NCBI GenBank assembly: GCA_964396655.1
Contig: CAYNFP010000001.1
Location: forward strand, 135,448 to 199,447
DNA: 64,000 nucleotides
From: an uncultured Muribaculaceae bacterium
GTDB taxonomy: Bacteria > Bacillota_I > Bacilli_A > RF39 > UBA660
Reading direction: 5' to 3'
How positions within the stretch are numbered: position 1 is the first letter of the stretch; each line of letters starts with the position of its first letter. Of this stretch, positions 7,195-38,789 are shown piece after piece. A program made the translations under genes and the position numbers. A model generated the notes under the pieces. The model was not told the DNA's origin and searched no databases. It worked only from the letters and a program-made list of their open reading frames with translations.

Positions 7195-8436
7195 ATGAGT
7201 AAAATAAAAAATATAATAGCAAGAGAAATATTGGATTCTAGAGGTATTCCTACAATAGAAACAAAAGTATATACAGAAAACGGAACTATAGGAATGTTTT
7301 CGGTGCCTTCTGGAGCCTCTAAAGGTGAAAGAGAAGCTTTGGAGTTAAGAGATGGAGATAAGAATAGGTATAATGGTAATGGTGTTTTAAATGCTGTTAA
7401 AAACGTTAATACAATAATAAAATACGGTTTATTAGGAATTGAAGTAAGTAGTCAAAAAGAAATAGATTCTATGTTAACTGAAATAGACGGTACAAGCAAT
7501 AAATCTAATTTAGGAGCAAATGCATTATTGTCAGTTAGTATAGCATGTCTTAGAGCAGCAGCTTCAGAACACAATGAAACTTTATATAATTATTTAAATA
7601 AGAAAGAAAAGAAACTACCTTATGGAATGTTTAATATTGTAAATGGAGGAAAACACGCATTTAATAACTTAGATATACAAGAATTTATGATAGTTCCTAA
7701 ATTCCCTAAATTTAGTAAAACAATAGAGTGTGTAAGTGAAGTATTCTATGCGTTAAAGAAAATATTAGAAGAAAAAGAATTATCTACTTCGGTTGGAGAT
7801 GAAGGAGGCTTTGCACCTAATCTAAAAAGCAATAAAGAAGCGTTAGATGTAATAGTTGAAGCTATAAAAAAAGCAAATTATATTCCAGGTAAAGAAGTAT
7901 TCTTAGCAATGGATGTCGCAGCCTCATCATTTTATGATAAAAAAGAAAAAAAATATAATTTGGATAACAAATTAATTACAAGAGAAGAATTACTTGATTA
8001 CTATACAGAATTATTACAAGATTATCCAATAATAAGTATAGAAGATCCTTTTGATGAAAATGATTATGAAGGATTTAAATTAATAACAGAAAAACTTGGT
8101 AAAAAAATAAGTATAGTTGGGGATGACTTATTTGTTACAAATAAAGAATTACTTAAAAAAGGTATAGAAAAAGGATTATGTAATGCAATACTTATTAAAC
8201 CTAATCAAATTGGAACATTCTATGAAATGTTAGAAACAATAGTATTAGCTAAACAAAACAAATATATAACAATACTATCTCATAGAAGTGGAGAAACAAC
8301 AGATCCTTTTATAGCAGAAGCAGTAGTAGCTTTAAACATGCCATTTATAAAAGCTGGTTCAATTACCAGAGGAGAAAGAATTGCAAAATACAATAAATTA
8401 TTAGAAATAGAAGAGGAATTAGAGCAATATAAATAA
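7195..8436 (+). CDS. eno: enolase
   Basis: MSKIKNIIAREILDSRGIPTIE..., SGASKGEREA, and Mg/substrate residues in IKPNQIGT and SHRSGETTD; start taken at ATG 7195. Confidence 0.9.
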   Translation: MSKIKNIIAREILDSRGIPTIETKVYTENGTIGMFSVPSGASKGEREALELRDGDKNRYNGNGVLNAVKNVNTIIKYGLLGIEVSSQKEIDSMLTEIDGTSNKSNLGANALLSVSIACLRAAASEHNETLYNYLNKKEKKLPYGMFNIVNGGKHAFNNLDIQEFMIVPKFPKFSKTIECVSEVFYALKKILEEKELSTSVGDEGGFAPNLKSNKEALDVIVEAIKKANYIPGKEVFLAMDVAASSFYDKKEKKYNLDNKLITREELLDYYTELLQDYPIISIEDPFDENDYEGFKLITEKLGKKISIVGDDLFVTNKELLKKGIEKGLCNAILIKPNQIGTFYEMLETIVLAKQNKYITILSHRSGETTDPFIAEAVVALNMPFIKAGSITRGERIAKYNKLLEIEEELEQYK

Positions 8437-19853: not shown

Positions 19854-20597
19854 ATGAAAGATAAAATAGCTTTAGTAACTGGAGGAACATCTGGAATTGG
19901 CAAAGAAATAGTAAAAGAATTATTAAATGAAGGTTTAAAAATAATTATTGTTTATGGTCATAATGTGGATCAAATGAACAGTACAAAAAATGAATTTAAA
20001 GAATTTGAAAATAGCTTATTCTTTATACAAGGTGATGTTTCAAAAGAAAATGAAGTAAAAGAATTATTTGAAGAAGTTTCTAAAAGATATAATTGTTTAG
20101 ATTTTTTAATAAACAATGCTGGAACAAATGTGGATGAAGATATAGAAAATGCAAGTTTAGAAACTTATATGAAAGTTGTAAATACAAATTATATAGGAAA
20201 AATGTTATGTATAAAATATGCTACACCATTATTAAAAAAGTCATCATATGCTAGTATTATTAACATTGCTTCAAGTTTAGGAATAAAAGCAGATACAGAG
20301 TGTAGTGCTTATTGTTGCTCAGCCGCAGCAATTATAAAATTAACTGAGTGTGCTGCATTAGAATTATCTAAATACAATATAAGAGTAAATACTGTAAGCC
20401 CAGCATTTACACCAACACCACTTTCTTTAGCTGGTTGGACAGAAGAAGAAATAAAAGCAAAAAAAGAAAGAAATTCAAGGCACAGACTAGGAAAAGTAGA
20501 AGATATAGCAAATGTAGTATTATTTTTAATTTCTGATAAAGCAGATTATATAAATGGGGAAAACATAAGAGTAAATGGCGGTAGTCTTTTAAAATAG
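19854..20597 (+). CDS. short-chain dehydrogenase/reductase (SDR)
   Basis: TGGTSGIGKEI Rossmann motif, NNAG, and catalytic S...Y..xK (SAYCCSAAAIIK). Confidence 0.75.
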   Translation: MKDKIALVTGGTSGIGKEIVKELLNEGLKIIIVYGHNVDQMNSTKNEFKEFENSLFFIQGDVSKENEVKELFEEVSKRYNCLDFLINNAGTNVDEDIENASLETYMKVVNTNYIGKMLCIKYATPLLKKSSYASIINIASSLGIKADTECSAYCCSAAAIIKLTECAALELSKYNIRVNTVSPAFTPTPLSLAGWTEEEIKAKKERNSRHRLGKVEDIANVVLFLISDKADYINGENIRVNGGSLLK

Positions 20598-21014: not shown

Positions 21015-21518
21015 ATGAAATTACAAAGAGGAAAATTTACAATTGATAATATTAAAGATTTAGACAAAGCAGAACTTGATCCTAAAGATGGTATAAGAAA
21101 AGTTATAGATTTAGATTATATGGGGCAATTTGAATATGAAGGAAATACTATTCCAATTTTAAGAATGTGGATGCAATATTATGGAGATAATTATGTATAT
21201 CAACCATTAAATGTATTTTCAAAAAATGGAAAGCAAATGTATGTTTTTTATGATTCTAATTCTATTACAGAAGAAGAAATAGAAAAGATAATTCAAAGAA
21301 AAATAGAGATAAATTATTCATTATATAGCTATATTAATTATCCAGATGAAGAATTTTATAGTGATTTTTGGTGGGATATTAATAGTGCTTATATGATTTT
21401 CTTTGGCGAAGAAAAGAAAGATTTAATTGAATATTTTCTAAATACCACTTTAGAACGAGATGGTGGTAAAGAAGGAATAAAAAGAAAATTAATTTCTAGC
21501 GGAATAAAATTAAAATAA
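21015..21518 (+). CDS. hypothetical protein
   Basis: 167-aa ORF with a GGGAGG Shine-Dalgarno, sitting between iscR and the nifS/iscU remnant. Confidence 0.4.
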   Translation: MKLQRGKFTIDNIKDLDKAELDPKDGIRKVIDLDYMGQFEYEGNTIPILRMWMQYYGDNYVYQPLNVFSKNGKQMYVFYDSNSITEEEIEKIIQRKIEINYSLYSYINYPDEEFYSDFWWDINSAYMIFFGEEKKDLIEYFLNTTLERDGGKEGIKRKLISSGIKLK

Positions 21519-21608: not shown

Positions 21609-21990
21609 ATGAATGACATATATTTAGACAATGCTGCGACTACAAAATTAGATTCAAAAGTATTAGAAGAAATGATGCCTTATTTAACAAAATGAATATG
21701 GTAATGCTTCTTCTATATGTAAACTTGGAAGGAATAATAGAAAATGCTTCAGGAGTAGGAGAGGTCGGAAATCCTGTTTGTTGAGATATATTAAAAATAT
21801 ATTTAAAAGTAGAAAATAATGTTATAACAGATGTTAAATTTAAAACGTTTGGTTGTGGAGTTGCAATTGCATCAAGCAGTATATCAACACAATTGATTAA
21901 AGGAAAAACAATAGAAGAAGCATTAAAAATAACTAATAAAGATGTTGTTGACTTTGTTGGGAAAAATAATATAATAATAGTTATTAATTA
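21609..21990 (+). pseudogene. cysteine desulfurase (iscS/nifS) N-terminus fused to an iscU C-terminal remnant; disrupted by stops and frameshifts
   Basis: Begins MNDIYLDNAATTKLDSKVLEEMMPYLTK then a stop; in another frame ...YGNASSI... (NifS-like). Further on, GNPVC*DILKIYLKVENNVITDVKFKTFGCGVAIASSSISTQLIKGKTIEEALKITNKDVVDFVG is IscU-like, with TGA replacing the conserved Gly of CGD. No intact ORF remains. Confidence 0.7.
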
Positions 21991-22010: not shown

Positions 22011-23123
22011 ATGGTGCCAATAATAGTACCTTTTGTCCCATTTTCAAATACAACAATTGTTAACAAAACAATTGTTTATAGTGATACGGTTTTAAATATA
22101 AAAGAATTAGGGCAAAATTTAAGAGTTACAACAATTTCTGATGTTGGAGAATATTCTTTTGAAAGGTGTTTAAAAATAATTTTTGAAAGTAACCCAAATG
22201 TAATATTTAATACAATACAATATTCTAGAAGTGAAAATAAAGTATATTTTTATACAAATTCTGAGATTTCTACAAAAGCTTGGAATGATACAAAAATCAC
22301 AAAAACGGAATATTCAGCTCTTAATACTGAAGTGTTAGAAGATTTAAAACAATTATTTTTAAGTACTCCTAAAATAGGAGAAGATTATATATCAATATAT
22401 TCTTTAGGAGTGTTTTTAAAAGATAAATATTCTGAAATTCAAGGGGAAATAGATGAATTTAAATCGATTCTGGATGATAAAGCAAAAGAATTTATAGGAA
22501 AAGATTATACTTTTTTGATTAGTTTTGATTGGTCAACCCATGAACTATGTATTACCTTTGTTGATCATTATAGCTATAAAGATAAATCTTTAGACAGAGA
22601 TCATAAATATAGATTTAGTAAAAAAGATGGTGATTTATATATAACTCAATCAGAAAACGGATGGCTCTATAAAGATAAAATTATTCCTTATTTTGGAAAA
22701 GAATTATCTGATTTATATGATTTATTTATAAAAAACAAATACTTTTATACTGTAGATAAAAGCAGAATAAAATTAATTAATTCTGGATTTGCATTAATAA
22801 TTAATGATAGTTTTGTTTCTATATATATATCAAAGTCTGGTTATTTTTATAATGTTGAATTTTCATTATCTAAACATTATTGTTTTGATGAAGAAAGGTA
22901 TAATTGTGAATGTAATTCATACAATATATCTTCTTTATTAGCGGGGAAAGAAAAAGAATTATTAAGAAGGATATATGTAAAAATTGATGATTGTCCTGAA
23001 TGGATGAAACAAAGTTTACACGAAAGAAACCAAAAATATTTAGAACAAGAAAGAATATTAGCAGAGAAACAAGCAAAAAAAGAAAGAGTAAAAGTACGGG
23101 TAAGAAAGTTTTTCCATTTATAA
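22011..23123 (+). CDS. hypothetical protein
   Basis: 370-aa ORF with a basic C-terminal tail; no recognisable motif. Confidence 0.4.
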   Translation: MVPIIVPFVPFSNTTIVNKTIVYSDTVLNIKELGQNLRVTTISDVGEYSFERCLKIIFESNPNVIFNTIQYSRSENKVYFYTNSEISTKAWNDTKITKTEYSALNTEVLEDLKQLFLSTPKIGEDYISIYSLGVFLKDKYSEIQGEIDEFKSILDDKAKEFIGKDYTFLISFDWSTHELCITFVDHYSYKDKSLDRDHKYRFSKKDGDLYITQSENGWLYKDKIIPYFGKELSDLYDLFIKNKYFYTVDKSRIKLINSGFALIINDSFVSIYISKSGYFYNVEFSLSKHYCFDEERYNCECNSYNISSLLAGKEKELLRRIYVKIDDCPEWMKQSLHERNQKYLEQERILAEKQAKKERVKVRVRKFFHL

Positions 23124-23947: not shown

Positions 23948-24021
23948 GCCGAATTAGTTAAATGGTATAACAGGGCCATGGTAAGGCTCAGTTGGCAGTC
24001 CGATTCTGCCATTTGGCACCA
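23948..24021 (+). tRNA. tRNA-Thr (anticodon GGU), CCA encoded
   Basis: Acceptor gccgaat/atttggc (one G-U pair), D-arm gtta-aatggta-taac, anticodon arm gggcc-atGGTaa-ggctc, T-arm ggcag-tccgatt-ctgcc, then a-cca. Confidence 0.75.
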
Positions 24022-24157
24022 TAAAATCAAAGAGAATCATTCATTATATTTGGATGATTTTTTAATTTTAAAATATACTTGATTAAAATCAATGTTTTTT
24101 TTATATAAAAATAATGTATAATTTAATTAGTGTAATATATTGGAGGTATTTAAAATT

Positions 24158-25156
24158 ATGAATGAATCTCAAAAGAAAATTATAACCGAATTAATTAAAA
24201 TATATTCCCAAAAAGCAAATATTACTTCTCAAGATGTAATAGATAAAACTATTTTCGATTTAACCTCTAAAAGTCCAGATGAAGCTATAGATTCTATTTT
24301 GATTTCTTTGAATGAATTGATGCAAAAAGGTCTTATTAAACAAGAAGATATTTTTTCTCAAGCGGATTTAATATTTCAATTAAATCCTGAAAAGTATAAA
24401 ACAGTTGATGATTTAATAGATAGATTTAATTGGATTAGATCTATGAATTTAGAATATCCCATTATGTCATTATCACAAAATCATGAATTAATTTTAAGAG
24501 TTTTTCATAATTTTAATTTATTACTTCAAAATCAATTTGATTGTTATTATTTAGGTGGAGTAATGGGATATATAGCAACTAATAATAAATTAGAAAGATA
24601 TCACAATGATTTGGACTTATTTATAAACGAAGAGCAATTGCTTGCTTTAAAACAATTAGTAGATTCAAGTGAAGATTTTGAATTTGTGAGCGGAATGAAT
24701 GGCAAAAAAGGTTCTGGGCATGAGTATAAAATAATTTACAAAGGCACAGAGATGAGTATAGGGCTTTTCCTTTTTGAAAGAGGACCGGATCAAAGCATAA
24801 TTACCAAAGAATATTATTACGATGAAGATGGGGCTTTGTGTGTGGATGAACATCACTGTTCTAAAGAATATACTGAAATGACCTTTTCTAACCAAACAAG
24901 AGAATATAATGGCGCACCTTATAAGATGATGAGTTTAGAAAGTATATACAATTCAAAAAAATGTTCAAGGTTAAAAGACAAACGTGATGCAGAACTTTTA
25001 AAAGACTATGTTGATATGTTAAAAGATTATCAAATTGATGTTGAAAGAAGAAATAATTATGATGTTAAACATAAAAAATTAGATTCTTCAATAATTCATA
25101 CGATTGAAACTGAAATGGCTAGTCAATTATTACCTTCTAAAAATAGTATTTTATGA
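24158..25156 (+). CDS. nucleotidyltransferase-fold protein, lincosamide/aminoglycoside nucleotidyltransferase (Lnu/ANT)-like C-terminal domain with a roughly 120-aa N-terminal extension
   Basis: YYLGGVMGY...HNDLDLFI resembles the GG..G.....R..D.D NTase motif of Lnu(A). The start is moved to ATG 24158 because the ORF-track TTG at 24140 is actually the GGAGG Shine-Dalgarno. Confidence 0.45.
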   Translation: MNESQKKIITELIKIYSQKANITSQDVIDKTIFDLTSKSPDEAIDSILISLNELMQKGLIKQEDIFSQADLIFQLNPEKYKTVDDLIDRFNWIRSMNLEYPIMSLSQNHELILRVFHNFNLLLQNQFDCYYLGGVMGYIATNNKLERYHNDLDLFINEEQLLALKQLVDSSEDFEFVSGMNGKKGSGHEYKIIYKGTEMSIGLFLFERGPDQSIITKEYYYDEDGALCVDEHHCSKEYTEMTFSNQTREYNGAPYKMMSLESIYNSKKCSRLKDKRDAELLKDYVDMLKDYQIDVERRNNYDVKHKKLDSSIIHTIETEMASQLLPSKNSIL

Positions 25157-25207
25157 GTATTAAATAAAATAAAAATAATGTATAATTTATATTAAGGAGA
25201 ATAAAAA

Positions 25208-25771
25208 ATGAATAACAAATATGTAAAAGTAATGTTTGGAGATATGTCAGCAGCTAAAAATGGGTTTAAATACAAAGTAGATGAAGTAAATATTTCTGAA
25301 TATTGGAATCCAAAAGGAACTAACGCTAAAGAAATGGGAGGATTTAACTTTTCTACTGAAGATAAAATAATAAGATGGCTTGTAAGAGGCGATACAATGT
25401 ATGATGTTGTAATTCCTGAAGTTGCTGAAGTTGTGGAGTTAAAAGGACTTGATGTACCACCGGGTATATTTAGATCAAATAAAATAATCATTACAAATCC
25501 AAAACCAATAAATGATAATTTTGCTATGGAATTATATGAAAAATCAGATTTACCAGAAGATGTTTGCTTTAAAACAATCGCGGGTTGTGCAGTAAGAGGT
25601 TATATAAACACAGCAAAAAAAATTATAAGAGATAAAATTAACAAAAATAATATAGATATGGCTTTATCTGAATATAATGAATTTGTAACAAGATATGCAA
25701 AAGTTGATAATCGTGGAGTGGGAATTATACAAAGCATTTTAAATTCAATTAAAAATAATGAAAATCTGTAA
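25208..25771 (+). CDS. hypothetical protein
   Basis: 187-aa ORF preceded by an AGGAGA Shine-Dalgarno and the same aaaaataatgtataattta element that precedes 24158. Confidence 0.4.
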   Translation: MNNKYVKVMFGDMSAAKNGFKYKVDEVNISEYWNPKGTNAKEMGGFNFSTEDKIIRWLVRGDTMYDVVIPEVAEVVELKGLDVPPGIFRSNKIIITNPKPINDNFAMELYEKSDLPEDVCFKTIAGCAVRGYINTAKKIIRDKINKNNIDMALSEYNEFVTRYAKVDNRGVGIIQSILNSIKNNENL

Positions 25772-25830
25772 TCTATTTTACAGTTTTTTTATTTATAATA
25801 ATATGTTAAAATTTATATAGAGGAAAATAT

Positions 25831-26829
25831 ATGTTAATAAATAAAAACTTAATATCTAATTGCTTTCCTAATATTAGACTAATTGATATAACTCATAAAG
25901 ATGGTATAACTTCTCACTTATTGGTAGTTGAAGCCTGTCTGGAAAAAGGATTTAATTTCGGATATATGTTATACTTACCAAATGAAATTTATAATAATAG
26001 TAGCATTTATGTTAAATGTGCAAATAGTGGAATTAATAAAAATAATTTAGAGGAATCAAAAAAGGCTATTTTTGATAGTTCGTTTGATATTGATGCATTT
26101 GTTTATAATTTTTCAAGAGAATATTGTTTTCCAGTATTAAGGCCTTTGATTCCTAGAATTTGTAAAGATTCTAAATCTTTATATACTCATGCATTAAGTA
26201 GTGCAACTTATTTTACTGACGATGAATTATTTAAAAATTTAGATATTCAGTTAATTAATATGATAAAAGACGCTAAAGAAAAACTTGAATTATTGGGTTT
26301 ATTAATAGATTATAAAATAATAATAGAAGGATTTTCTGCAGCAGGAGTATTTGCAAATATATTTACTGTTTTGCATCCGGAGTTAATAAAGTTATGTATA
26401 GCTGGGGGAACTAATGGTAAGTTGATGCTTCCAATTAGTGAGTTAAATGGAAAAAAATTAATTTATCCAGTAGGGACTTATAATATTCCTTATTATAACG
26501 ATGAATATTTTGAAGAGTTTAAATCAGTTAGGCAGCTCTATTATTTAGGAAGTGAAGATCAAAGTGATTCTTTGGCTACCAAAGAAATAAATGGAGAATT
26601 ATTCCCTTTATATGGAGATGCATATACAAAAGAAGAAATGGATTTATTCTTTGAAATATACGGAAGAAAAATTAGTGATAGATGGTTAAAAACAATGCAA
26701 ATATATAATGGACTTGGAATAAATGCTGTATTTAAAACTTATGATGGATATTCACATACTGATGAACCAGCTATAGAAGATATAAAAGTAGAGTTATCAG
26801 ATTTAATTTCTAACATAAAGAGAATTTAG
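25831..26829 (+). CDS. alpha/beta-hydrolase-fold protein (putative esterase)
   Basis: GxSxG-type nucleophile elbow GFSAAG, followed by ...GGTNG... and a C-terminal H. Confidence 0.45.
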   Translation: MLINKNLISNCFPNIRLIDITHKDGITSHLLVVEACLEKGFNFGYMLYLPNEIYNNSSIYVKCANSGINKNNLEESKKAIFDSSFDIDAFVYNFSREYCFPVLRPLIPRICKDSKSLYTHALSSATYFTDDELFKNLDIQLINMIKDAKEKLELLGLLIDYKIIIEGFSAAGVFANIFTVLHPELIKLCIAGGTNGKLMLPISELNGKKLIYPVGTYNIPYYNDEYFEEFKSVRQLYYLGSEDQSDSLATKEINGELFPLYGDAYTKEEMDLFFEIYGRKISDRWLKTMQIYNGLGINAVFKTYDGYSHTDEPAIEDIKVELSDLISNIKRI

Positions 26830-26848
26830 ATAAGAAAGGAGTGAAAAT

Positions 26849-27304
26849 ATGGAAGATAAACCAAAGGTAATATCAGAATATGCTTATAATATTATGAGAA
26901 TATGTAAGTTAAATGGTTGTGATAGAATAAAAAATTTGCAAGAATATATAAAAGAAATATATTGGAATTCTTCTTACCTTACATATCCAGAATTATATAG
27001 TAATCTACTTGGTGTTGTATTAGAAATTTGTTCTGAACATGAAATAAAATGTATTTTGCAATATGACATACCAGAACGCTTTAGAAATAAAGTATATGAA
27101 AGTGGTAAATTTGATAGTTTACCAATTGATTATGAAGATTTATGTAAGGTTTTGATTACTAAGTTAACTTTTATACGTGTAAAAGAAAATGATGAATATT
27201 TGTTTTCTGTTAAAACAAAAAATTCTATTATGACAATTGATGATTATGAAAACAGCTCAAATAACGAAGTTGTGATAAGAAAGAGATTAAAATATAATGA
27301 ATAG
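26849..27304 (+). CDS. hypothetical protein
   Basis: 151-aa ORF overlapping the next gene by 8 nt (operon). Confidence 0.4.
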   Translation: MEDKPKVISEYAYNIMRICKLNGCDRIKNLQEYIKEIYWNSSYLTYPELYSNLLGVVLEICSEHEIKCILQYDIPERFRNKVYESGKFDSLPIDYEDLCKVLITKLTFIRVKENDEYLFSVKTKNSIMTIDDYENSSNNEVVIRKRLKYNE

Positions 27305-28325
27305 TTTTAGTAAAAAAGTAGGAAATATAACAATTACAATAGATTATAGAATTGAACTTCTTGGTATAATTATGCATATAAGCGACTATTCAAAAGAACT
27401 TCCTCATTTGTTTGTAGAGCATGAAAATAAATTTTATATGGATAGAATTAAAGAGAAATTTTTGAAATATAAAAATGAAGAGGTTGTAAAAATATTTGAT
27501 TCGCTTCTTATAAAACATAGTTTTTCATATGATGCTCCTTATGCTTTATTTTATGAATTAAATGAAGATTTTGAATGTAATAAATTGAGTGATTATGTAT
27601 TCAAAAGTAGGTTAGGCTCAGATGAATTAGTATATGAATTCATATCTAAATTAAAACCATTTGCTGAAAAAATAAATTTTGAAGAGTATTATAATTCTAA
27701 TAAAGAAGAATATTTAAAATATATAAATTCAATTGCGTCAGCTTTTGAGATGTATGATATATCAAAATTCCTTTTTTCTTATTATGGCTATGGTGAAGAT
27801 AAAAAGTTTTTTGTTAATCCGATTGCTTTTGCTAGTGATGGGGCTTTTGGAGTAATGCTAGAAGATGGAGCTATTTATTCTTCTATTCCGGTTTATAAAA
27901 ACAGTAAAAGAGAGAATTTATTTGATTATACTAGCAGAGAAAAATCAATAGTTAAAACATCAGTTCATGAATTTAGTCACGGATTTGTAAATAAAATTAA
28001 CGAAAAATATGGTTTAATAGATAATGATTCAAATATTTTTAGCAATATATTTGAAGTAATGAAAAAGAATGCTTATGGTAGTAATTACTCTATATTAAAT
28101 GAATTCATAATCAGAGCAATAGTTGCTAGATATATTTTAATTACATATAAAGATGAAGAGCATTATAAAAAAGAAATTGAAAGAACAAAAGAGTGGGGAT
28201 TCATTTATATAGATAATATAATTGAATCATTAATTGAGTATGAAAATAATAGAGACAAATATAAAACTCTTGATGAGTATTTTCCTATCATGGTTAATAA
28301 CTTAATAAATTATATTAAAAAGTAA
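27297..28325 (+). CDS. hypothetical protein with HExxH motif (putative zinc-dependent peptidase)
   Basis: SVHEFSHGF contains HEFSH (HExxH). Confidence 0.35.
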   Translation: MNSFSKKVGNITITIDYRIELLGIIMHISDYSKELPHLFVEHENKFYMDRIKEKFLKYKNEEVVKIFDSLLIKHSFSYDAPYALFYELNEDFECNKLSDYVFKSRLGSDELVYEFISKLKPFAEKINFEEYYNSNKEEYLKYINSIASAFEMYDISKFLFSYYGYGEDKKFFVNPIAFASDGAFGVMLEDGAIYSSIPVYKNSKRENLFDYTSREKSIVKTSVHEFSHGFVNKINEKYGLIDNDSNIFSNIFEVMKKNAYGSNYSILNEFIIRAIVARYILITYKDEEHYKKEIERTKEWGFIYIDNIIESLIEYENNRDKYKTLDEYFPIMVNNLINYIKK

Positions 28326-28457
28326 ATTATTTATAAATATAAAATAGTTTACTTTTTTTATTAATGAGTTATAATATTATGCTATTAAAGGGAGTTTTAA
28401 ATATAGATAAAAATTATAATTTGATGATATAATATATTTTAATGGAGGTTTTAGTTT

Positions 28458-29789
28458 ATGGGAAATAAATTTATCACTTATGCTGATTTAATAGAGATAT
28501 TAAATGATTTGATAGATGGTTTAAATAATGGCGATATAAAATTTTTGAACAGAAATGTTTTTGATTCTATTATAAAAGGGAATAATTTTAATCGTTTCAT
28601 ATTTTATAAACTTCAACAATATAAATGCATTGAAAATAATAATGCTGTTTTAAGACTTTTGAATGATCCGGATTTGTCTTCGCATAGTTGTATATATGAA
28701 ATTATGAATTTTATTAATGAAATTGGTCAGGAAACTGAATTAACTTTAGAGCAAAAGAATAAATTGGAGAGGTTAATTAAGGAAAATAATAATTTAGGTA
28801 ATTCATATAAAAAAATAGAGGAATTAAAATCTTTTATTGGAAACTATTTATTTGAGGAAATAAAACATGATATAGATTTAAATAATTATAGTGGAATAAT
28901 AAATTTATATAAATTAATGGTTGATAGAAATGGATTTTTAGATAATAAAGAAGTATTTAAAAAAATAGTTTCTTTAAAGGGTGATTATTTTAAATTGTGT
29001 TATAACATGGTTTATTTAGCTAGATTTGTAATAGGAGAGGAAGGCAAAAAGAATATAATTTATAAACAAATATTAGATGAACAATACGAAACATTATCTA
29101 TATTCTATGAACTATGTTTAGAAAATAATCCTTTTTTATCAAAGGTAAATAATTTACTTAAAGCCTATGAATCTGGTGAACTTGAATATGATTATGATTT
29201 ATTAAGTTCTTTGGTTTTAATATCAACAGAAGATTCTGAAGAAATAGATTATTATTCATATGAATATAATAGTAGTTATAATCAAAAATTTAATCTATTT
29301 TTAATAAGTAAAAAAGTGGAATTTAAAAATAAATTTAATATAATTAATTATGGAGAAATAAGATATAAAGAATTGCCAAATTATGTTTCTATGCCTACAA
29401 GAAGTCATGAAGAAGACGCTGGAGCGGATGTATATGCAACAAAAGATATTGTTTTGAATCCGGGAGATAGATATAAAATGCCTCTTGGTATTGCTATTGA
29501 AATTCCCGTTGGTTCTATGGCGGTAATATATACTAAAAGTGGGACATTCATAAAAGGATTAATTTCTTATGAACCACCTATTGATGCTGGTTATACTGGT
29601 GAAATTCATGCTTTACTTCATAATATAAATAATGAACCAATTATAATAAAAAAAGGTGATAAAGTGGGACAGTTAATATTGTTGCCGATATATTTGCCGA
29701 AATTTAAAAAAACAGAAGAAGAATTAATATCAGGAGAAAGAGGAACTGGAGGTTTTGGTTCTACCGGTGCATCTTTGATTAAGAAATAG
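28458..29789 (+). CDS. fusion protein: unknown N-terminal domain of about 290 aa plus a C-terminal dUTPase domain
   Basis: C-terminal dUTPase motifs AGADVYA, GxxDAGYTGEI and RGTGGFGSTG (motif V). The N-terminal 290 aa have no recognisable motif. Confidence 0.6.
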   Translation: MGNKFITYADLIEILNDLIDGLNNGDIKFLNRNVFDSIIKGNNFNRFIFYKLQQYKCIENNNAVLRLLNDPDLSSHSCIYEIMNFINEIGQETELTLEQKNKLERLIKENNNLGNSYKKIEELKSFIGNYLFEEIKHDIDLNNYSGIINLYKLMVDRNGFLDNKEVFKKIVSLKGDYFKLCYNMVYLARFVIGEEGKKNIIYKQILDEQYETLSIFYELCLENNPFLSKVNNLLKAYESGELEYDYDLLSSLVLISTEDSEEIDYYSYEYNSSYNQKFNLFLISKKVEFKNKFNIINYGEIRYKELPNYVSMPTRSHEEDAGADVYATKDIVLNPGDRYKMPLGIAIEIPVGSMAVIYTKSGTFIKGLISYEPPIDAGYTGEIHALLHNINNEPIIIKKGDKVGQLILLPIYLPKFKKTEEELISGERGTGGFGSTGASLIKK

Positions 29790-29845
29790 TAATAATTACT
29801 ATTTTTTTGTATGTTAAATATGTTAAAATTGTTTAGGAGACTATT

Positions 29846-37094: not shown

Positions 37095-38789
37095 ATGAAA
37101 AATAAAGATATAGATAATGAAGAATATAGAGATTTAGAAGAACATAGATTATCAGTATTAAAAAGAACAGGAATTATAATTTTAGTTATTTTAGGTATAA
37201 TGATTATTTTCTTGTTTTTAAAAAGTTGTACTAAAACAGAGGATAATGATTTAAGTAAAACATTATTAGAAGCTGGTAAAGAATATTATGAATATAATGA
37301 GCATTTACTTCCGACAGCGGTAGGAGATTGCAAAAATGTTACTTTAACAACATTATCACAAGAAGGATTAATAAATAAAGCTAAGTATGCTGATTGTGGT
37401 AATGATAGTACATATGTAAAAGTTTGTAAGTTAGAAAGTGGTAAATATCATTTTGTAGCAATAATGGATTGTGTTAATGAAAAAACAGATGATTTATATG
37501 GAAGTTGGAAAGAAGGAACTGAAAAAGATATTATTTCTGATTCTTCTGATATAAAATTTTTCTTCCAAGTTCAATATTTGGATACAACTAATGCAAATGT
37601 AGGAAATAGTGAAGAATATTGGGAAGATGAGATTCCATATTCAAAATATAAAACAGAAGCTGTAACTAAGTATTATAGATATAAAGATTTGCAATATATT
37701 TGGAATATTACATCTAAAAGATATTATCCAGGGGATGCTACAAGCATAGCGAATATAAAAGAATATTATATAACTTCACCAAGTGCTGATTATAAATATA
37801 AAGATAATGAAAATACTAAAGTATCAAAATATTTTAGTACAACAGAAGGAAAAATATATTGGGTAGATGAAAGTGGAAACCGTAACTTTGCTTTAACAGC
37901 CCCAGATAACGTTTATATTTATCCAGATAATCCTGTTTATCAAACAGGATATGCAACCAGAGTATGGACTGAAACATCTAAGCCTGTAACAGCGGATTCC
38001 ACTCAATTTTGGTATTGTTCAAGCCCAAATGATGAGAATCAAATAAGATCAACTGTGCCATGTGAAAATAACGTTAATAATTACACAATAACAGAAAGAA
38101 TGATATATTCTTGTGATGGAGGCCTTACTGAAGTAGGCCAAAATGGCGTATGTTATCAATGTACTGATGGCAAAGGTTTAAGAACTGATAGAAGTTCTTG
38201 TGGATATTATAGTGATTATGGGAATTATAGTAAAACTCCTTGTGATACTTCATCTGATTTATGTACAACTAAAATATTTACTGCATATCAATGGTATAAA
38301 TTAGTTGATGGTGAAAGGAAGTATTATCCAAGTAATTCTACTACTGCTTCAGGTGAGAAAACATATTATGGAGAATCTCCAGTAACAAGTCTTATTAAAG
38401 ATGTAACAACCACAACTACCGGATGGAAATGGTATAAAAAGTTGGATACTGAGACTACAAGTTATTATTCAACATCTCCTCAAACAGGAGCAACTAAAAC
38501 AGATACAAGTAGATGGACTGACTTCACAAAATGGTCAACTGCGGTACCTCAAAGTTTGGGTTCTGAAGGGACAAGGATGATTGAAACAAGAAATAAAATT
38601 AAATTGAAACAAATAACAGGAGATACTGATAGTTGGTTAAATTATAATGAAAAATATATGGAGTTAGATTCAATATTAACTTCACTTCAAGCTAAAGGTT
38701 ACAAAGTTTATTCACTTGATGATATAACATCTAGTGGCGAATTAAAATATAAAGTAAAGTTATTTGTTAGAAACAAGGAAGTGGAATAA
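37095..38789 (+). CDS. membrane-anchored protein with a large Cys/Tyr/Trp/Thr-rich extracytoplasmic domain
   Basis: N-in TM (GIIILVILGIMIIFLFL), then about 520 aa with at least 20 Cys and abundant Y/W/T. Overlaps the next gene by 1 nt (TAATG). Confidence 0.5.
   Translation: MKNKDIDNEEYRDLEEHRLSVLKRTGIIILVILGIMIIFLFLKSCTKTEDNDLSKTLLEAGKEYYEYNEHLLPTAVGDCKNVTLTTLSQEGLINKAKYADCGNDSTYVKVCKLESGKYHFVAIMDCVNEKTDDLYGSWKEGTEKDIISDSSDIKFFFQVQYLDTTNANVGNSEEYWEDEIPYSKYKTEAVTKYYRYKDLQYIWNITSKRYYPGDATSIANIKEYYITSPSADYKYKDNENTKVSKYFSTTEGKIYWVDESGNRNFALTAPDNVYIYPDNPVYQTGYATRVWTETSKPVTADSTQFWYCSSPNDENQIRSTVPCENNVNNYTITERMIYSCDGGLTEVGQNGVCYQCTDGKGLRTDRSSCGYYSDYGNYSKTPCDTSSDLCTTKIFTAYQWYKLVDGERKYYPSNSTTASGEKTYYGESPVTSLIKDVTTTTTGWKWYKKLDTETTSYYSTSPQTGATKTDTSRWTDFTKWSTAVPQSLGSEGTRMIETRNKIKLKQITGDTDSWLNYNEKYMELDSILTSLQAKGYKVYSLDDITSSGELKYKVKLFVRNKEVE

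Follow-up and report, generated by a model that had tools for sequence, protein, structure and literature searches.

Two variable slots in a largely conserved interval next to tRNA-Thr: comparison of a six-gene locus with two relatives

Six genes, here named A to F, lie directly 3' of the tRNA-Thr(GGU) gene of an AT-rich spore-former. Do they form one accessory islet? The original prediction described the roughly 5.7 kb as such an islet, typical of resistance or defence islands and carrying a duplicated regulatory cassette. We analysed the locus within the whole 64 kb stretch of DNA (the window, with a GC content of 24%), and all features described below are on the + strand. The tRNA gene, the six open reading frames, the overlap between D and E, the HExxH motif and the dUTPase fusion were all found where they had been predicted.

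Gene order in the window and in two relatives

We compared the locus with two metagenomic contigs, L027 and L028. Both contigs are short (12.4 and 19.4 kb), and the absence of a gene refers to the locus and the contigs, as copies may be present elsewhere in those genomes. Our searches of genome, JGI metagenome and viral collections found no close relative. Both contigs have the gene order UppS, tRNA-Thr, slot 1, B, C, D, E, slot 2, PHP/VanZ, which in the three genomes is part of the wider order Rrf2, (IscS, NifU), UppS, tRNA-Thr ... PHP/VanZ, TilS; the window genome retains remnants of iscS and nifU, that is, the locus has decayed there. The tRNA-Thr gene (23948-24021; ARAGORN, Rfam 56 bits) is identical in L027 and differs by one base in L028. 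We observed that both relatives keep genes B to E in synteny with 59-90% identity, which is on par with the flanking UppS, Rrf2, PHP and TilS: UppS is 94% (L027) and 81% (L028) identical to the window, PHP 87.5% (L027; the gene is absent in L028) and TilS 89% (L028; it is not on the L027 contig). A and F had no tblastn match on either contig. The comparison of presence and absence that had been proposed for this locus thus separates A and F, missing in both relatives, from B to E, present in both.

Since four of the six genes keep their place in both relatives, the cluster is not a single accessory islet. With moderate confidence, we regard the region as ordinary chromosome that contains two single-gene slots of variable content. 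Slot 1 extends from the 3' end of tRNA-Thr to the promoter of B. It contains A in the window, a Bro-N/PDC-S13 defence-candidate gene in L027 (match to PDC-S13, E 1.6e-96), and Nmad3 together with a frameshifted Bro-N in L028. Slot 2 is located between E and the next gene and contains F in the window and a 184-aa ORF and an AAA ATPase in L028. Of the predicted islet, the variability next to the tRNA stands, whereas B to E are conserved.

That A to F were nevertheless acquired horizontally as one resistance or defence islet, bringing its own duplicated promoter cassette, would fit the position of the cluster at the tRNA 3' end, the five of six proteins without functional annotation, and the defence-candidate gene at the tRNA-adjacent position of the relatives. 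However, in addition to the synteny of B to E and the absence of A and F in both relatives, all six genes resemble the core in GC content and codon usage (A deviates by just +1.8 sd in GC3), and A and F bear no compositional trace of recent import. Neither an integrase nor a repeat of the tRNA 3' end was found at the locus, and PADLOC gave no defence model for any of the six proteins. Elsewhere, A and C have homologues in unrelated neighbourhoods which, with the exception of one pair of A with a C-like domain, never occur together with other genes of the cluster. Lastly, L027 has no A and yet already carries the promoter. Given L027 and L028, a single six-gene islet is largely refuted, and we consider it very improbable; of the predicted accessory islet, only a part is borne out. 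Slot 1 itself behaves as a small swap site, in which we detected neither an integrase nor an att repeat, nor any contrast in GC or codon usage.

Slot 1 and the repeat upstream of A and B

Directly past the tRNA end (...CACCAT), the alignment to L027 and L028 becomes weak and ambiguous. A terminator-like hairpin followed by a T run (24031-24069; ViennaRNA -13.2 kcal/mol) differs in sequence from the hairpin of the relatives at the equivalent place. A clear match to L027 resumes at a 21-mer upstream of B, which is one of the two copies of the predicted repeat. The predicted 19-mer AAAAATAATGTATAATTTA has two exact occurrences in the 64 kb (24107 and 25171) and no further copy in the window even at two mismatches; the exact repeat is 21 nt long (ATAAAAATAATGTATAATTTA). 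Copy 1 (24105-24125) is the putative promoter of A, and copy 2 (25169-25189) that of B. Their TATAAT is located at 24117-24122 and 25181-25186, which is 35 and 21 nt upstream of the ATG of A and B, respectively. The element had also been described as an extended -10. We find instead that TGTATAAT is a perfect TATAAT directly preceded by TG, and not the canonical TGnTATAAT.

The copy upstream of B has counterparts in both relatives: AAAATAATGTATAATTT at 8065 in L027, with 17 of 19 bases kept, and a degenerate AAATAAGGTATAATTA at the equivalent place upstream of B in L028. This suggests that the 21-mer before B is the ancestral promoter of B and the copy before A a local duplicate, although its role as a promoter is putative and based on a short A/T-rich string. 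As the copy before A would be a duplicate of the B promoter, identical -10 regions would drive A and B. A regulatory cassette brought along by an islet does not agree with this, as the B promoter is present in L027 and was probably duplicated before A.

Alternatively, the two 21-mers might be independent instances of a strong A/T-rich promoter consensus of the host, or a chance repeat. From Markov simulations at 24% GC, one would expect about 0.9-1.5 repeated 19-mers in a window of this size, and the window does contain several further chance repeats made up of A and T only; the repeat alone is thus not rare. Moreover, TGTATAAT occurs 11 times in the window, and a consensus promoter scan yields no excess of sites over shuffled sequence, its sole TG-type flag in the region being the site that ends at 28433 upstream of F. 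Chance, however, leaves the placement of the two copies unexplained. Both are intergenic, co-oriented and 1064 nt apart, and each is located just upstream of the RBS of one of two adjacent genes; they are identical at 21 of 21 positions, at these two sites only. Furthermore, one of the copies has its orthologue in the B promoter of L027, and homologues of A elsewhere lack the 21-mer and carry their own unrelated TGnTATAAT. We therefore think it rather improbable that the two copies arose independently, and retain the duplication of the B promoter.

Between copy 1 and A, the 16-mer TGTAATATATTGGAGG (24131-24146) is likely a remnant of the Bro-N promoter and leader, which reads TATAATATATTGAAGG in the relatives; in pairwise alignments, its -10 element is spoiled by an A-to-G change at the second base. 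It is the sole match to the Bro-N leader in the window at up to two mismatches, with 0.61 expected window-wide. As a short, low-complexity A/T-rich string it is only suggestive of a surviving leader. We propose that A took the place of the Bro-N ORF in slot 1, apparently leaving a fragment of the Bro-N leader before A, and that A would now be transcribed from the 21-nt duplicate of the B promoter, set just upstream of this fragment.

The opposite direction of change is that A and F are ancestral here and that the relatives lost both, with A replaced by Bro-N and F deleted, such that nothing was inserted in the window genome. The core-like GC and codon usage of both genes would agree with this, as would the other decay in the same region of the window genome (the iscS/nifU remnants); moreover, only two relatives were compared, without an outgroup that would polarise gain versus loss. 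On the other hand, the Bro-N arrangement is common to both relatives and a remnant of its leader seems to be kept before A, the N-terminal domain of F has no homologue anywhere we searched, and the nearest homologue of A is just 62% identical and located in an unrelated context. We thus regard an ancestral A and F as quite unlikely, and favour the replacement of Bro-N by A.

Predicted products of the six genes

Gene A (24158-25156) encodes 332 aa if translation starts at the ATG, or 338 aa with the upstream TTG at 24140 as the start codon. In the structural model (pLDDT 90), residues 1-125 form an all-helical N-terminal domain, and residues ~126-325 an ANT(2'')-Ia/LnuA-like nucleotidyltransferase domain with the motif G133-G134...D151-x-D153, whose GG...DxD is invariant across 275 full-length homologues. 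There is no sequence match to nucleotidyltransferases in Pfam, NCBIfam or PDB (best NTP_transf_5, E 0.035), so that the functional call is based on the predicted fold, at 11-14% identity. At this level, the prediction of a Lnu/ANT-like protein with an extra N-terminal domain is supported, and A appears to be an uncharacterised fold relative of antibiotic-adenylylating enzymes. Its homologues are singletons beside GNAT acetyltransferases, NUDIX or an AraC/GyrI-like regulator; one is carried by a mobile element, together with a serine recombinase and Mob_Pre, and A was not found in the plasmid and phage records searched. Judging from fold, motif and neighbours, A would be a Mg2+-dependent nucleotidyltransferase that most probably moves AMP (or another NMP) from an NTP onto the hydroxyl of a small molecule, e.g. 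an antibiotic-like compound, and its N-terminal domain may serve in substrate binding or oligomerisation.

A different role would be that of a MenT/AbiEii-like toxin or anti-phage effector acting on tRNA or some other target in the cell, and located in a small defence hotspot at tRNA-Thr. We consider this unlikely. In the fold comparison, ANT(2'')-Ia and LnuA score clearly higher than the toxins MenT1, MenT3/TglT and MenT4, and both align over nearly the whole of their own length. Furthermore, A has no PADLOC match, no antitoxin-like partner is conserved across six different contexts, or adjacent in any of them, and the GNAT, NUDIX and GyrI-like neighbours are typical companions in small-molecule detoxification. 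The modification of a small molecule is thus the role that we prefer for A. A homologue of A adjoins a C-like domain in L020/L021, which hints at a functional link between A and C; our main explanation takes this pairing as coincidence.

Gene B (25208-25771, 187 aa; 90% identity in L027, 79% in L028) represents an unnamed domain of ~160 aa (GGFNFS...RGDT.YDV.IP.DAE...NKII..NP) in stand-alone form. The domain has 191 cluster representatives, some of them fused to GNAT, APH, HD, Metallophos_2, HAD_SAK_2, PASTA, YgjV or DUF1919. A hairpin that reads like an intrinsic terminator (CTGTAA-TCTATT-TTACAG followed by T7; 25766-25790) spans its stop codon and is kept in both relatives. B appears to be monocistronic, with its own putative promoter and terminator.

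Genes C, D and E seem to form a single operon, and promoter activity may reside in an extended -10-like TGtTAAAAT at 25804-25812 (TGaTAAAAT in both relatives). C (25831-26829, 332 aa; 81% identity in L027, 59% in L028) is a cytoplasmic alpha/beta hydrolase of the esterase D/S-formylglutathione hydrolase/PHB-depolymerase type; the alpha/beta hydrolase had been predicted and is supported at the fold level (pLDDT 93; Foldseek matches to PDB from 2e-10 to 1e-7). Its catalytic triad would be S169 (in G-F-S-A-A), D243 and H309; the nucleophile-elbow serine, the acid and the histidine are conserved across the family. D (26849-27304, 151 aa; 73% identity in L027, 70% in L028) overlaps E by 8 nt, and profile searches detected no family for it. 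E (27297-28325, 342 aa; 86% identity in L027, 76% in L028, with long invariant blocks) belongs to DUF4932 (Pfam E 1.3e-37), and its HExxH motif is HEFSH at residues 224-228.

Gene F (28458-29789, 443 aa) has its own putative promoter, the canonical extended -10 TGATATAAT at 28425-28433 flagged by the promoter scan, which lies within the segment missing from L027. A hairpin (ATAGTA-ataat-TACTAT followed by a T run; 29786-29808) spans its stop codon, and past F, at ~29797, the sequence again matches the spacer between E and PHP in L027 (CTATTTTTTTGTATGTTAAATATG...). The first 300 residues form an orphan N-terminal domain with no Pfam or viral match. The remainder (~301-443) contains a dUTPase domain (residues 309-437 in Pfam/NCBIfam) that matches PDB dUTPases at 1e-22. 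Full-length searches returned F itself alone, such that F is known from the host organism only. From these matches, F is most probably an active dUTPase.

Comparison with known systems

ANT(2'')-Ia (AadB) and LnuA (PDB 4xje and 4wh5) are small antibiotic nucleotidyltransferases that lack the conserved all-helical domain of ~125 aa at the N-terminus of A, and no sequence or profile match connects them to A. C shares its fold with esterase D/S-formylglutathione hydrolase and PHB-depolymerase-like hydrolases, but it is only 9-15% identical to them, has no Pfam match, and belongs to a very small family (just 21 homologues were found) in which the elbow of C reads G-F-S-A-A. F resembles N-terminally extended or fused dUTPases (ThyX-dUTPase and AAA-dUTPase are among the matches) in that its C-terminal part is a complete dUTPase of the trimeric type, with the RGxxGFGSTG motif at the C-terminus. 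Its 300-aa N-terminal domain, by contrast, has no match among them, and the similarity of F to P0124 is essentially carried by the dUTPase part.

The locus as a whole resembles tRNA-adjacent islands and defence hotspots, as the site 3' of tRNA-Thr varies between close relatives and the slot of the relatives holds a PADLOC candidate (the PDC-S13-like Bro-N) and an Nmad3 gene. It differs from them in that slot 1 holds a single gene, with no integrase, att-type repeat or compositional contrast, and in that the four adjoining genes are a conserved backbone.

A conserved gene block with two variable positions beside tRNA-Thr

Six ORFs follow tRNA-Thr(GGT) (23948-24021, called by ARAGORN and Rfam), all co-oriented and 3' of it on the + strand. 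These are gene A (24158-25156, 332 aa), gene B (25208-25771, 187 aa), gene C (25831-26829, 332 aa), gene D (26849-27304, 151 aa), gene E (27297-28325, 342 aa) and gene F (28458-29789, 443 aa). The original prediction described these features and interpreted them as an accessory islet; the features are confirmed, and the interpretation is partly supported.

To compare the locus among relatives, we used two metagenomic contigs, L027 (12.4 kb) and L028 (19.4 kb), found via the two closest homologues of C (81 and 59% identical, respectively). Both contain Rrf2, IscS, NifU, UppS and tRNA-Thr in this order. The tRNA is followed in L027 by Bro-N, B, C, D, E and PHP, and in L028 by Nmad3 (on the opposite strand), a frameshifted Bro-N, B, C, D, E, a 184-aa ORF, AAA ATPase, VanZ and TilS. 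The identity to the window in L027 and L028 is 92 and 84% for Rrf2, 94 and 81% for UppS, 90 and 79% for B, 73 and 70% for D, and 86 and 76% for E. PHP is 87.5% identical in L027 and absent from L028; TilS is 89% identical in L028 and not on the L027 contig. No match to A or F was found on either contig. Presence and absence in these two relatives, both represented by short contigs, thus separates B to E, which occur in both, from A and F, which are missing at the locus. Given these identities and absences, B to E resemble the backbone around them, and of the six genes it is A and F alone that vary among the three genomes. A gain of A and F here and a loss in the relatives both fit the two-relative comparison. 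A scan of genome contigs with UppS found no close relative, the best match being 51% identical in a non-syntenic Erysipelotrichaceae MAG.

The window clearly matches the two relatives as far as the end of the tRNA, and then again from a 21-nt repeat before B. A second interruption lies downstream of E, where a segment of about 1.47 kb that contains F and its own TGATATAAT interrupts the E-PHP spacer of L027; the match is back at about 29797. The locus is therefore a conserved backbone with two positions whose content differs among relatives, which we call slot 1 (from the tRNA 3' end to the B promoter) and slot 2 (between E and the next gene). The site adjoining tRNA-Thr is a real variable slot, but most of the 5.7 kb proposed as an islet is conserved chromosome. 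The original prediction called for a comparison of presence and absence at tRNA-Thr and named universal conservation with core-like composition as evidence against it. Absence from both relatives holds for A and F, whereas B to E are present in both. In GC and codon usage, all six genes are core-like (gene GC 0.23-0.28 compared to a window mean of 0.242; codon-usage residuals within about 1 sd).

No recombinase domain was detected in any ORF of 23948-29789 with Pfam and NCBIfam. The 3'-terminal 15-22 nt of tRNA-Thr have a single occurrence in the window, even when 2-3 mismatches are allowed, so that no att repeat is found. With neither an integrase nor an att repeat, A is not a classical integrative island. 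We consider the locus as a compact case of single-gene swapping in fixed tRNA-adjacent chromosomal slots without a visible recombinase. A known defence system, as suggested for this gene combination, was not recovered among the six genes, as neither A to F nor the flanking ORFs match PADLOC at E <= 0.1. The only slot 1 gene with such a match is that of L027, where the Bro-N gene in A's position (7210-8040) matches the PADLOC candidate PDC-S13 (E 1.6e-96). In L028 (7544-9322), Bro-N is frameshifted into two ORFs, with the Nmad3-domain gene 5' of it on the opposite strand. Nothing useful on PDC-S13 or DUF4932, the family of E, was found in the literature.

We made several further observations in the window and its relatives. 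At 21609-21961, iscS (aa 1-58) and nifU (aa 19-95) survive only as remnants, so that the Fe-S cluster genes are pseudogenised here; they are intact within Rrf2-IscS-NifU-UppS of the relatives. Two orphan ORFs with no counterpart in the relatives flank the remnants (21015-21518, 167 aa; 22011-23123, 370 aa). A second tRNA-adjacent variable slot (17729-20597) contains an Asp/Glu racemase, a Fic-domain protein and an SDR after tRNA-Arg(CCT), and in L028 this slot contains a single 405-aa ORF. In L027, genes for a phage-type integrase, HTH_17 and DapB_N lie before Rrf2 instead. At 42406-42969 (+), an OLE (ornate, large, extremophilic) RNA is present in full length (Rfam RF01071, 356 bits), which places the organism among the OLE-bearing anaerobic Firmicutes. 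Just 3' of spoIIGA and a sporulation-type sigma factor gene, a stretch with GC up to 0.30-0.35 (37095-41224) encodes two adjacent large proteins (564 and 811 aa) with no Pfam match at E <= 0.001. Lastly, dense long exact DNA repeats of up to about 50 nt in two to four copies (61556-62176) lie inside a 738-aa ORF (60216-62432) and indicate a repeat-containing protein.

A repeated promoter-like element before A and B

The original prediction reported an identical 19-mer before A and B. It has exactly two copies in the window (24107 and 25171), and the exact repeat reaches 21 nt, ATAAAAATAATGTATAATTTA, at 24105-24125 (copy 1, before A) and 25169-25189 (copy 2, before B). As roughly one exact repeated 19-mer per window is expected by chance at 24% GC, the identity of the 21-mers alone is weak evidence. 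The two copies lie in intergenic sequence in the same orientation, in each case just 5' of the ribosome-binding site of the adjacent gene; it is the placement and not the identity that carries the weight. The motif is a perfect TATAAT with TG directly abutting. The repeat thus stands and is longer than first reported, but it is not a canonical extended -10 (TGnTATAAT).

At the same position upstream of B, L027 has AAAATAATGTATAATTT and L028 has AAATAAGGTATAATTA. These counterparts suggest that copy 2 is the ancestral B promoter. In other genomes, the genes homologous to A are preceded by different TGnTATAAT promoters of their own, and copy 1 is thus best read as a local duplicate of the B promoter. 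Instead of an imported regulatory cassette that was duplicated, the element would be a duplicated resident promoter. A would then be transcribed from the duplicated copy of the putative B promoter, that is, the newcomer appears to be wired to a copy of its neighbour's promoter.

Five bases 3' of copy 1 we find TGTAATATATTGGAGG (24131-24146), which is the only match in the window, with at most two mismatches, to the Bro-N promoter/leader of the relatives, TATAATATATTGAAGG. This suggests that A may have taken the place of the Bro-N reading frame, with decay of the old -10; we give this suggestion low weight because the strings are short and A/T-rich. A multiple alignment of the A upstream region with the B and Bro-N promoters of the relatives is ambiguous in the A/T-rich sequence. 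Further downstream, the 3' end of B contains a conserved hairpin followed by a T run, and C is preceded by a conserved TGnTAAAAT element. On this reading of the sequence, B would be monocistronic and C, D and E would form one operon.

The resident genes B to E and the dUTPase fusion F

Only two of the six proteins match curated families in Pfam, NCBIfam, PHROGs and PADLOC scans, namely E (DUF4932) and F (dUTPase). B represents, in stand-alone form, an unnamed domain of about 160 aa with 191 cluster representatives. In other organisms (including the retrieved proteins P0160-P0181), this domain is fused to GNAT, APH kinase, HD, Metallophos_2 (calcineurin-like phosphoesterase), HAD_SAK_2, PASTA, YgjV or DUF1919, and it may deserve its own family definition. 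We tested for a B-C linkage beyond the close relatives by searching all retrieved loci with a B-domain profile, and found no further matches.

C had been proposed to be an alpha/beta hydrolase, which agrees with its predicted structure. The model (pLDDT 93) has an alpha/beta hydrolase fold that is closest to esterase D, S-formylglutathione hydrolases and PHB depolymerase-like enzymes. Furthermore, in 19 sequences S169 and D243 of the Ser-acid-His triad are invariant and H309 nearly so. C is thus predicted to be an esterase D-like alpha/beta hydrolase by fold and triad. The family is tiny (21 matches). Some of its distant members adjoin APH, GNAT-AAA and ABC-F genes; others adjoin a 407-aa protein that exists as a fusion with a C-like domain at two other loci, L020 and L021. 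Comparisons of A, C and E to PDB sequences gave no informative match.

The overlap of D with an HExxH protein holds: D and E share 8 nt, and E has the motif HEFSH. No relatives of D were detected other than its counterparts on L027 and L028. E matches DUF4932 over profile positions 1-330 of 332 (E 1.3e-37; 130.3 bits compared to a Pfam cut-off of 28.7). A look-up of identical E proteins found only a 1.5-kb contig of the same strain, and scans of JGI metagenomes with E and the E alignment found nothing.

F is a dUTPase fusion, as predicted. Its C-terminal 140 residues are a complete dUTPase (PF00692, 2.4e-23, profile positions 2-129 of 129) that aligns to PDB 8xhm through the C-terminal motif V (...RGtGGFGStG); the score against the NCBIfam dUTPase equivalog, 99.4 bits, is just below the cut-off of 102.55. 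Residues 1-300 have no match, and a scan of viral contigs with this N-terminal domain was also empty. F would thus be an active dUTPase with an added domain. Apart from A and the slots, the locus is ordinary chromosomal backbone with lineage-specific hydrolases.

Gene A, a nucleotidyltransferase-fold family of scattered single genes

A has 275 homologues, nearly all of full length (about 330 aa), with 48-62% identity in the 120 that are listed. Across 50 sequences of the family, G133, D151 and D153 are invariant and G134 nearly so; A carries the catalytic G-[GS]...D-x-[DE] metal-binding motif. In the AlphaFold model, which is based on 50 homologues (pLDDT 90, pTM 0.82), residues 1-125 form an all-helical N-terminal domain, and an alpha/beta domain comes after it. 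The nucleotidyltransferase alpha/beta core and the helical C-terminal subdomain superpose on solved ANT(2'')/Lnu-type enzymes. At the level of sequence models, nothing in Pfam or NCBIfam matches A at curated thresholds; the sole weak match is NTP_transf_5 (E 0.035, 14 bits compared to a cut-off of 31), and a profile of 50 family members found no nucleotidyltransferase among PDB sequences. The assignment of A as a Lnu/ANT-like nucleotidyltransferase thus holds for the fold of the predicted model but not for sequence models, where A is not a member of the ANT(2'')/Lnu family. We regard A as a real enzyme with a predicted ANT/Lnu fold that belongs to an undescribed family.

In other genomes, the homologues of A are single genes in unrelated neighbourhoods. 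They occur between NUDIX and an AraC/GyrI-like regulator, beside GNAT acetyltransferases or flanked by them, between the genes for ribosomal protein L33 and a PBP, and in an element that interrupts spoIVA and encodes a serine recombinase and Mob_Pre. A scan of viral contigs with the family found nothing, and neither did tblastn searches with A and B in phage and plasmid records. The ANT(2'')/LnuA fold, the GG...DxD motif and this occurrence as single genes near GNAT, NUDIX and GyrI-like genes, in one case on a mobile element, together suggest that A is a Mg2+-dependent nucleotidyltransferase that would act on a small molecule. The main rival is that A is a MenT-like toxin or a defence effector. 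Lower-ranked fold matches point to this alternative, and slot 1 of the relatives holds the defence candidates Nmad3 and PDC-S13-like Bro-N; however, A has no conserved partner gene and no PADLOC match.

If A is a small-molecule nucleotidyltransferase, its family might be an unrecognised class of drug- or metabolite-adenylylating resistance enzymes, although we consider this rather unlikely. Such a class would comprise at least 275 members with a helical N-terminal and an ANT(2'')/LnuA-like domain, scattered as single genes in anaerobic spore-forming Firmicutes, with at least one of them on a mobilisable element. It would be invisible to current resistance-gene catalogues because no existing sequence model matches the family; with no Pfam, NCBIfam or PADLOC model, A would be missed by resistome screens that rely on such models. 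Should A modify an antibiotic, the resistance-enzyme reservoir would gain an unannotated family that is mobilisable in at least one case. We see the most useful lead of the locus in the A family, possibly an unannotated group of modifying enzymes.

At L020 and L021, a homologue of A is directly followed by a protein with a C-like domain. In the window A also lies near C, but it apparently arrived beside a pre-existing C, and we treat the resemblance as coincidence. The protein is membrane-anchored and 869 aa long; its N-terminal 400 aa are 61% identical to the separate 407-aa protein near a C homologue at a further locus (L031), and residues 413-726 are C-like. Both genes lie on an element of about 15 kb (L020 4524-20644; the same element in L021) that interrupts spoIVA, as a skin-type intervening element would, and also encodes a serine recombinase, a Mob_Pre relaxase and RhuM.
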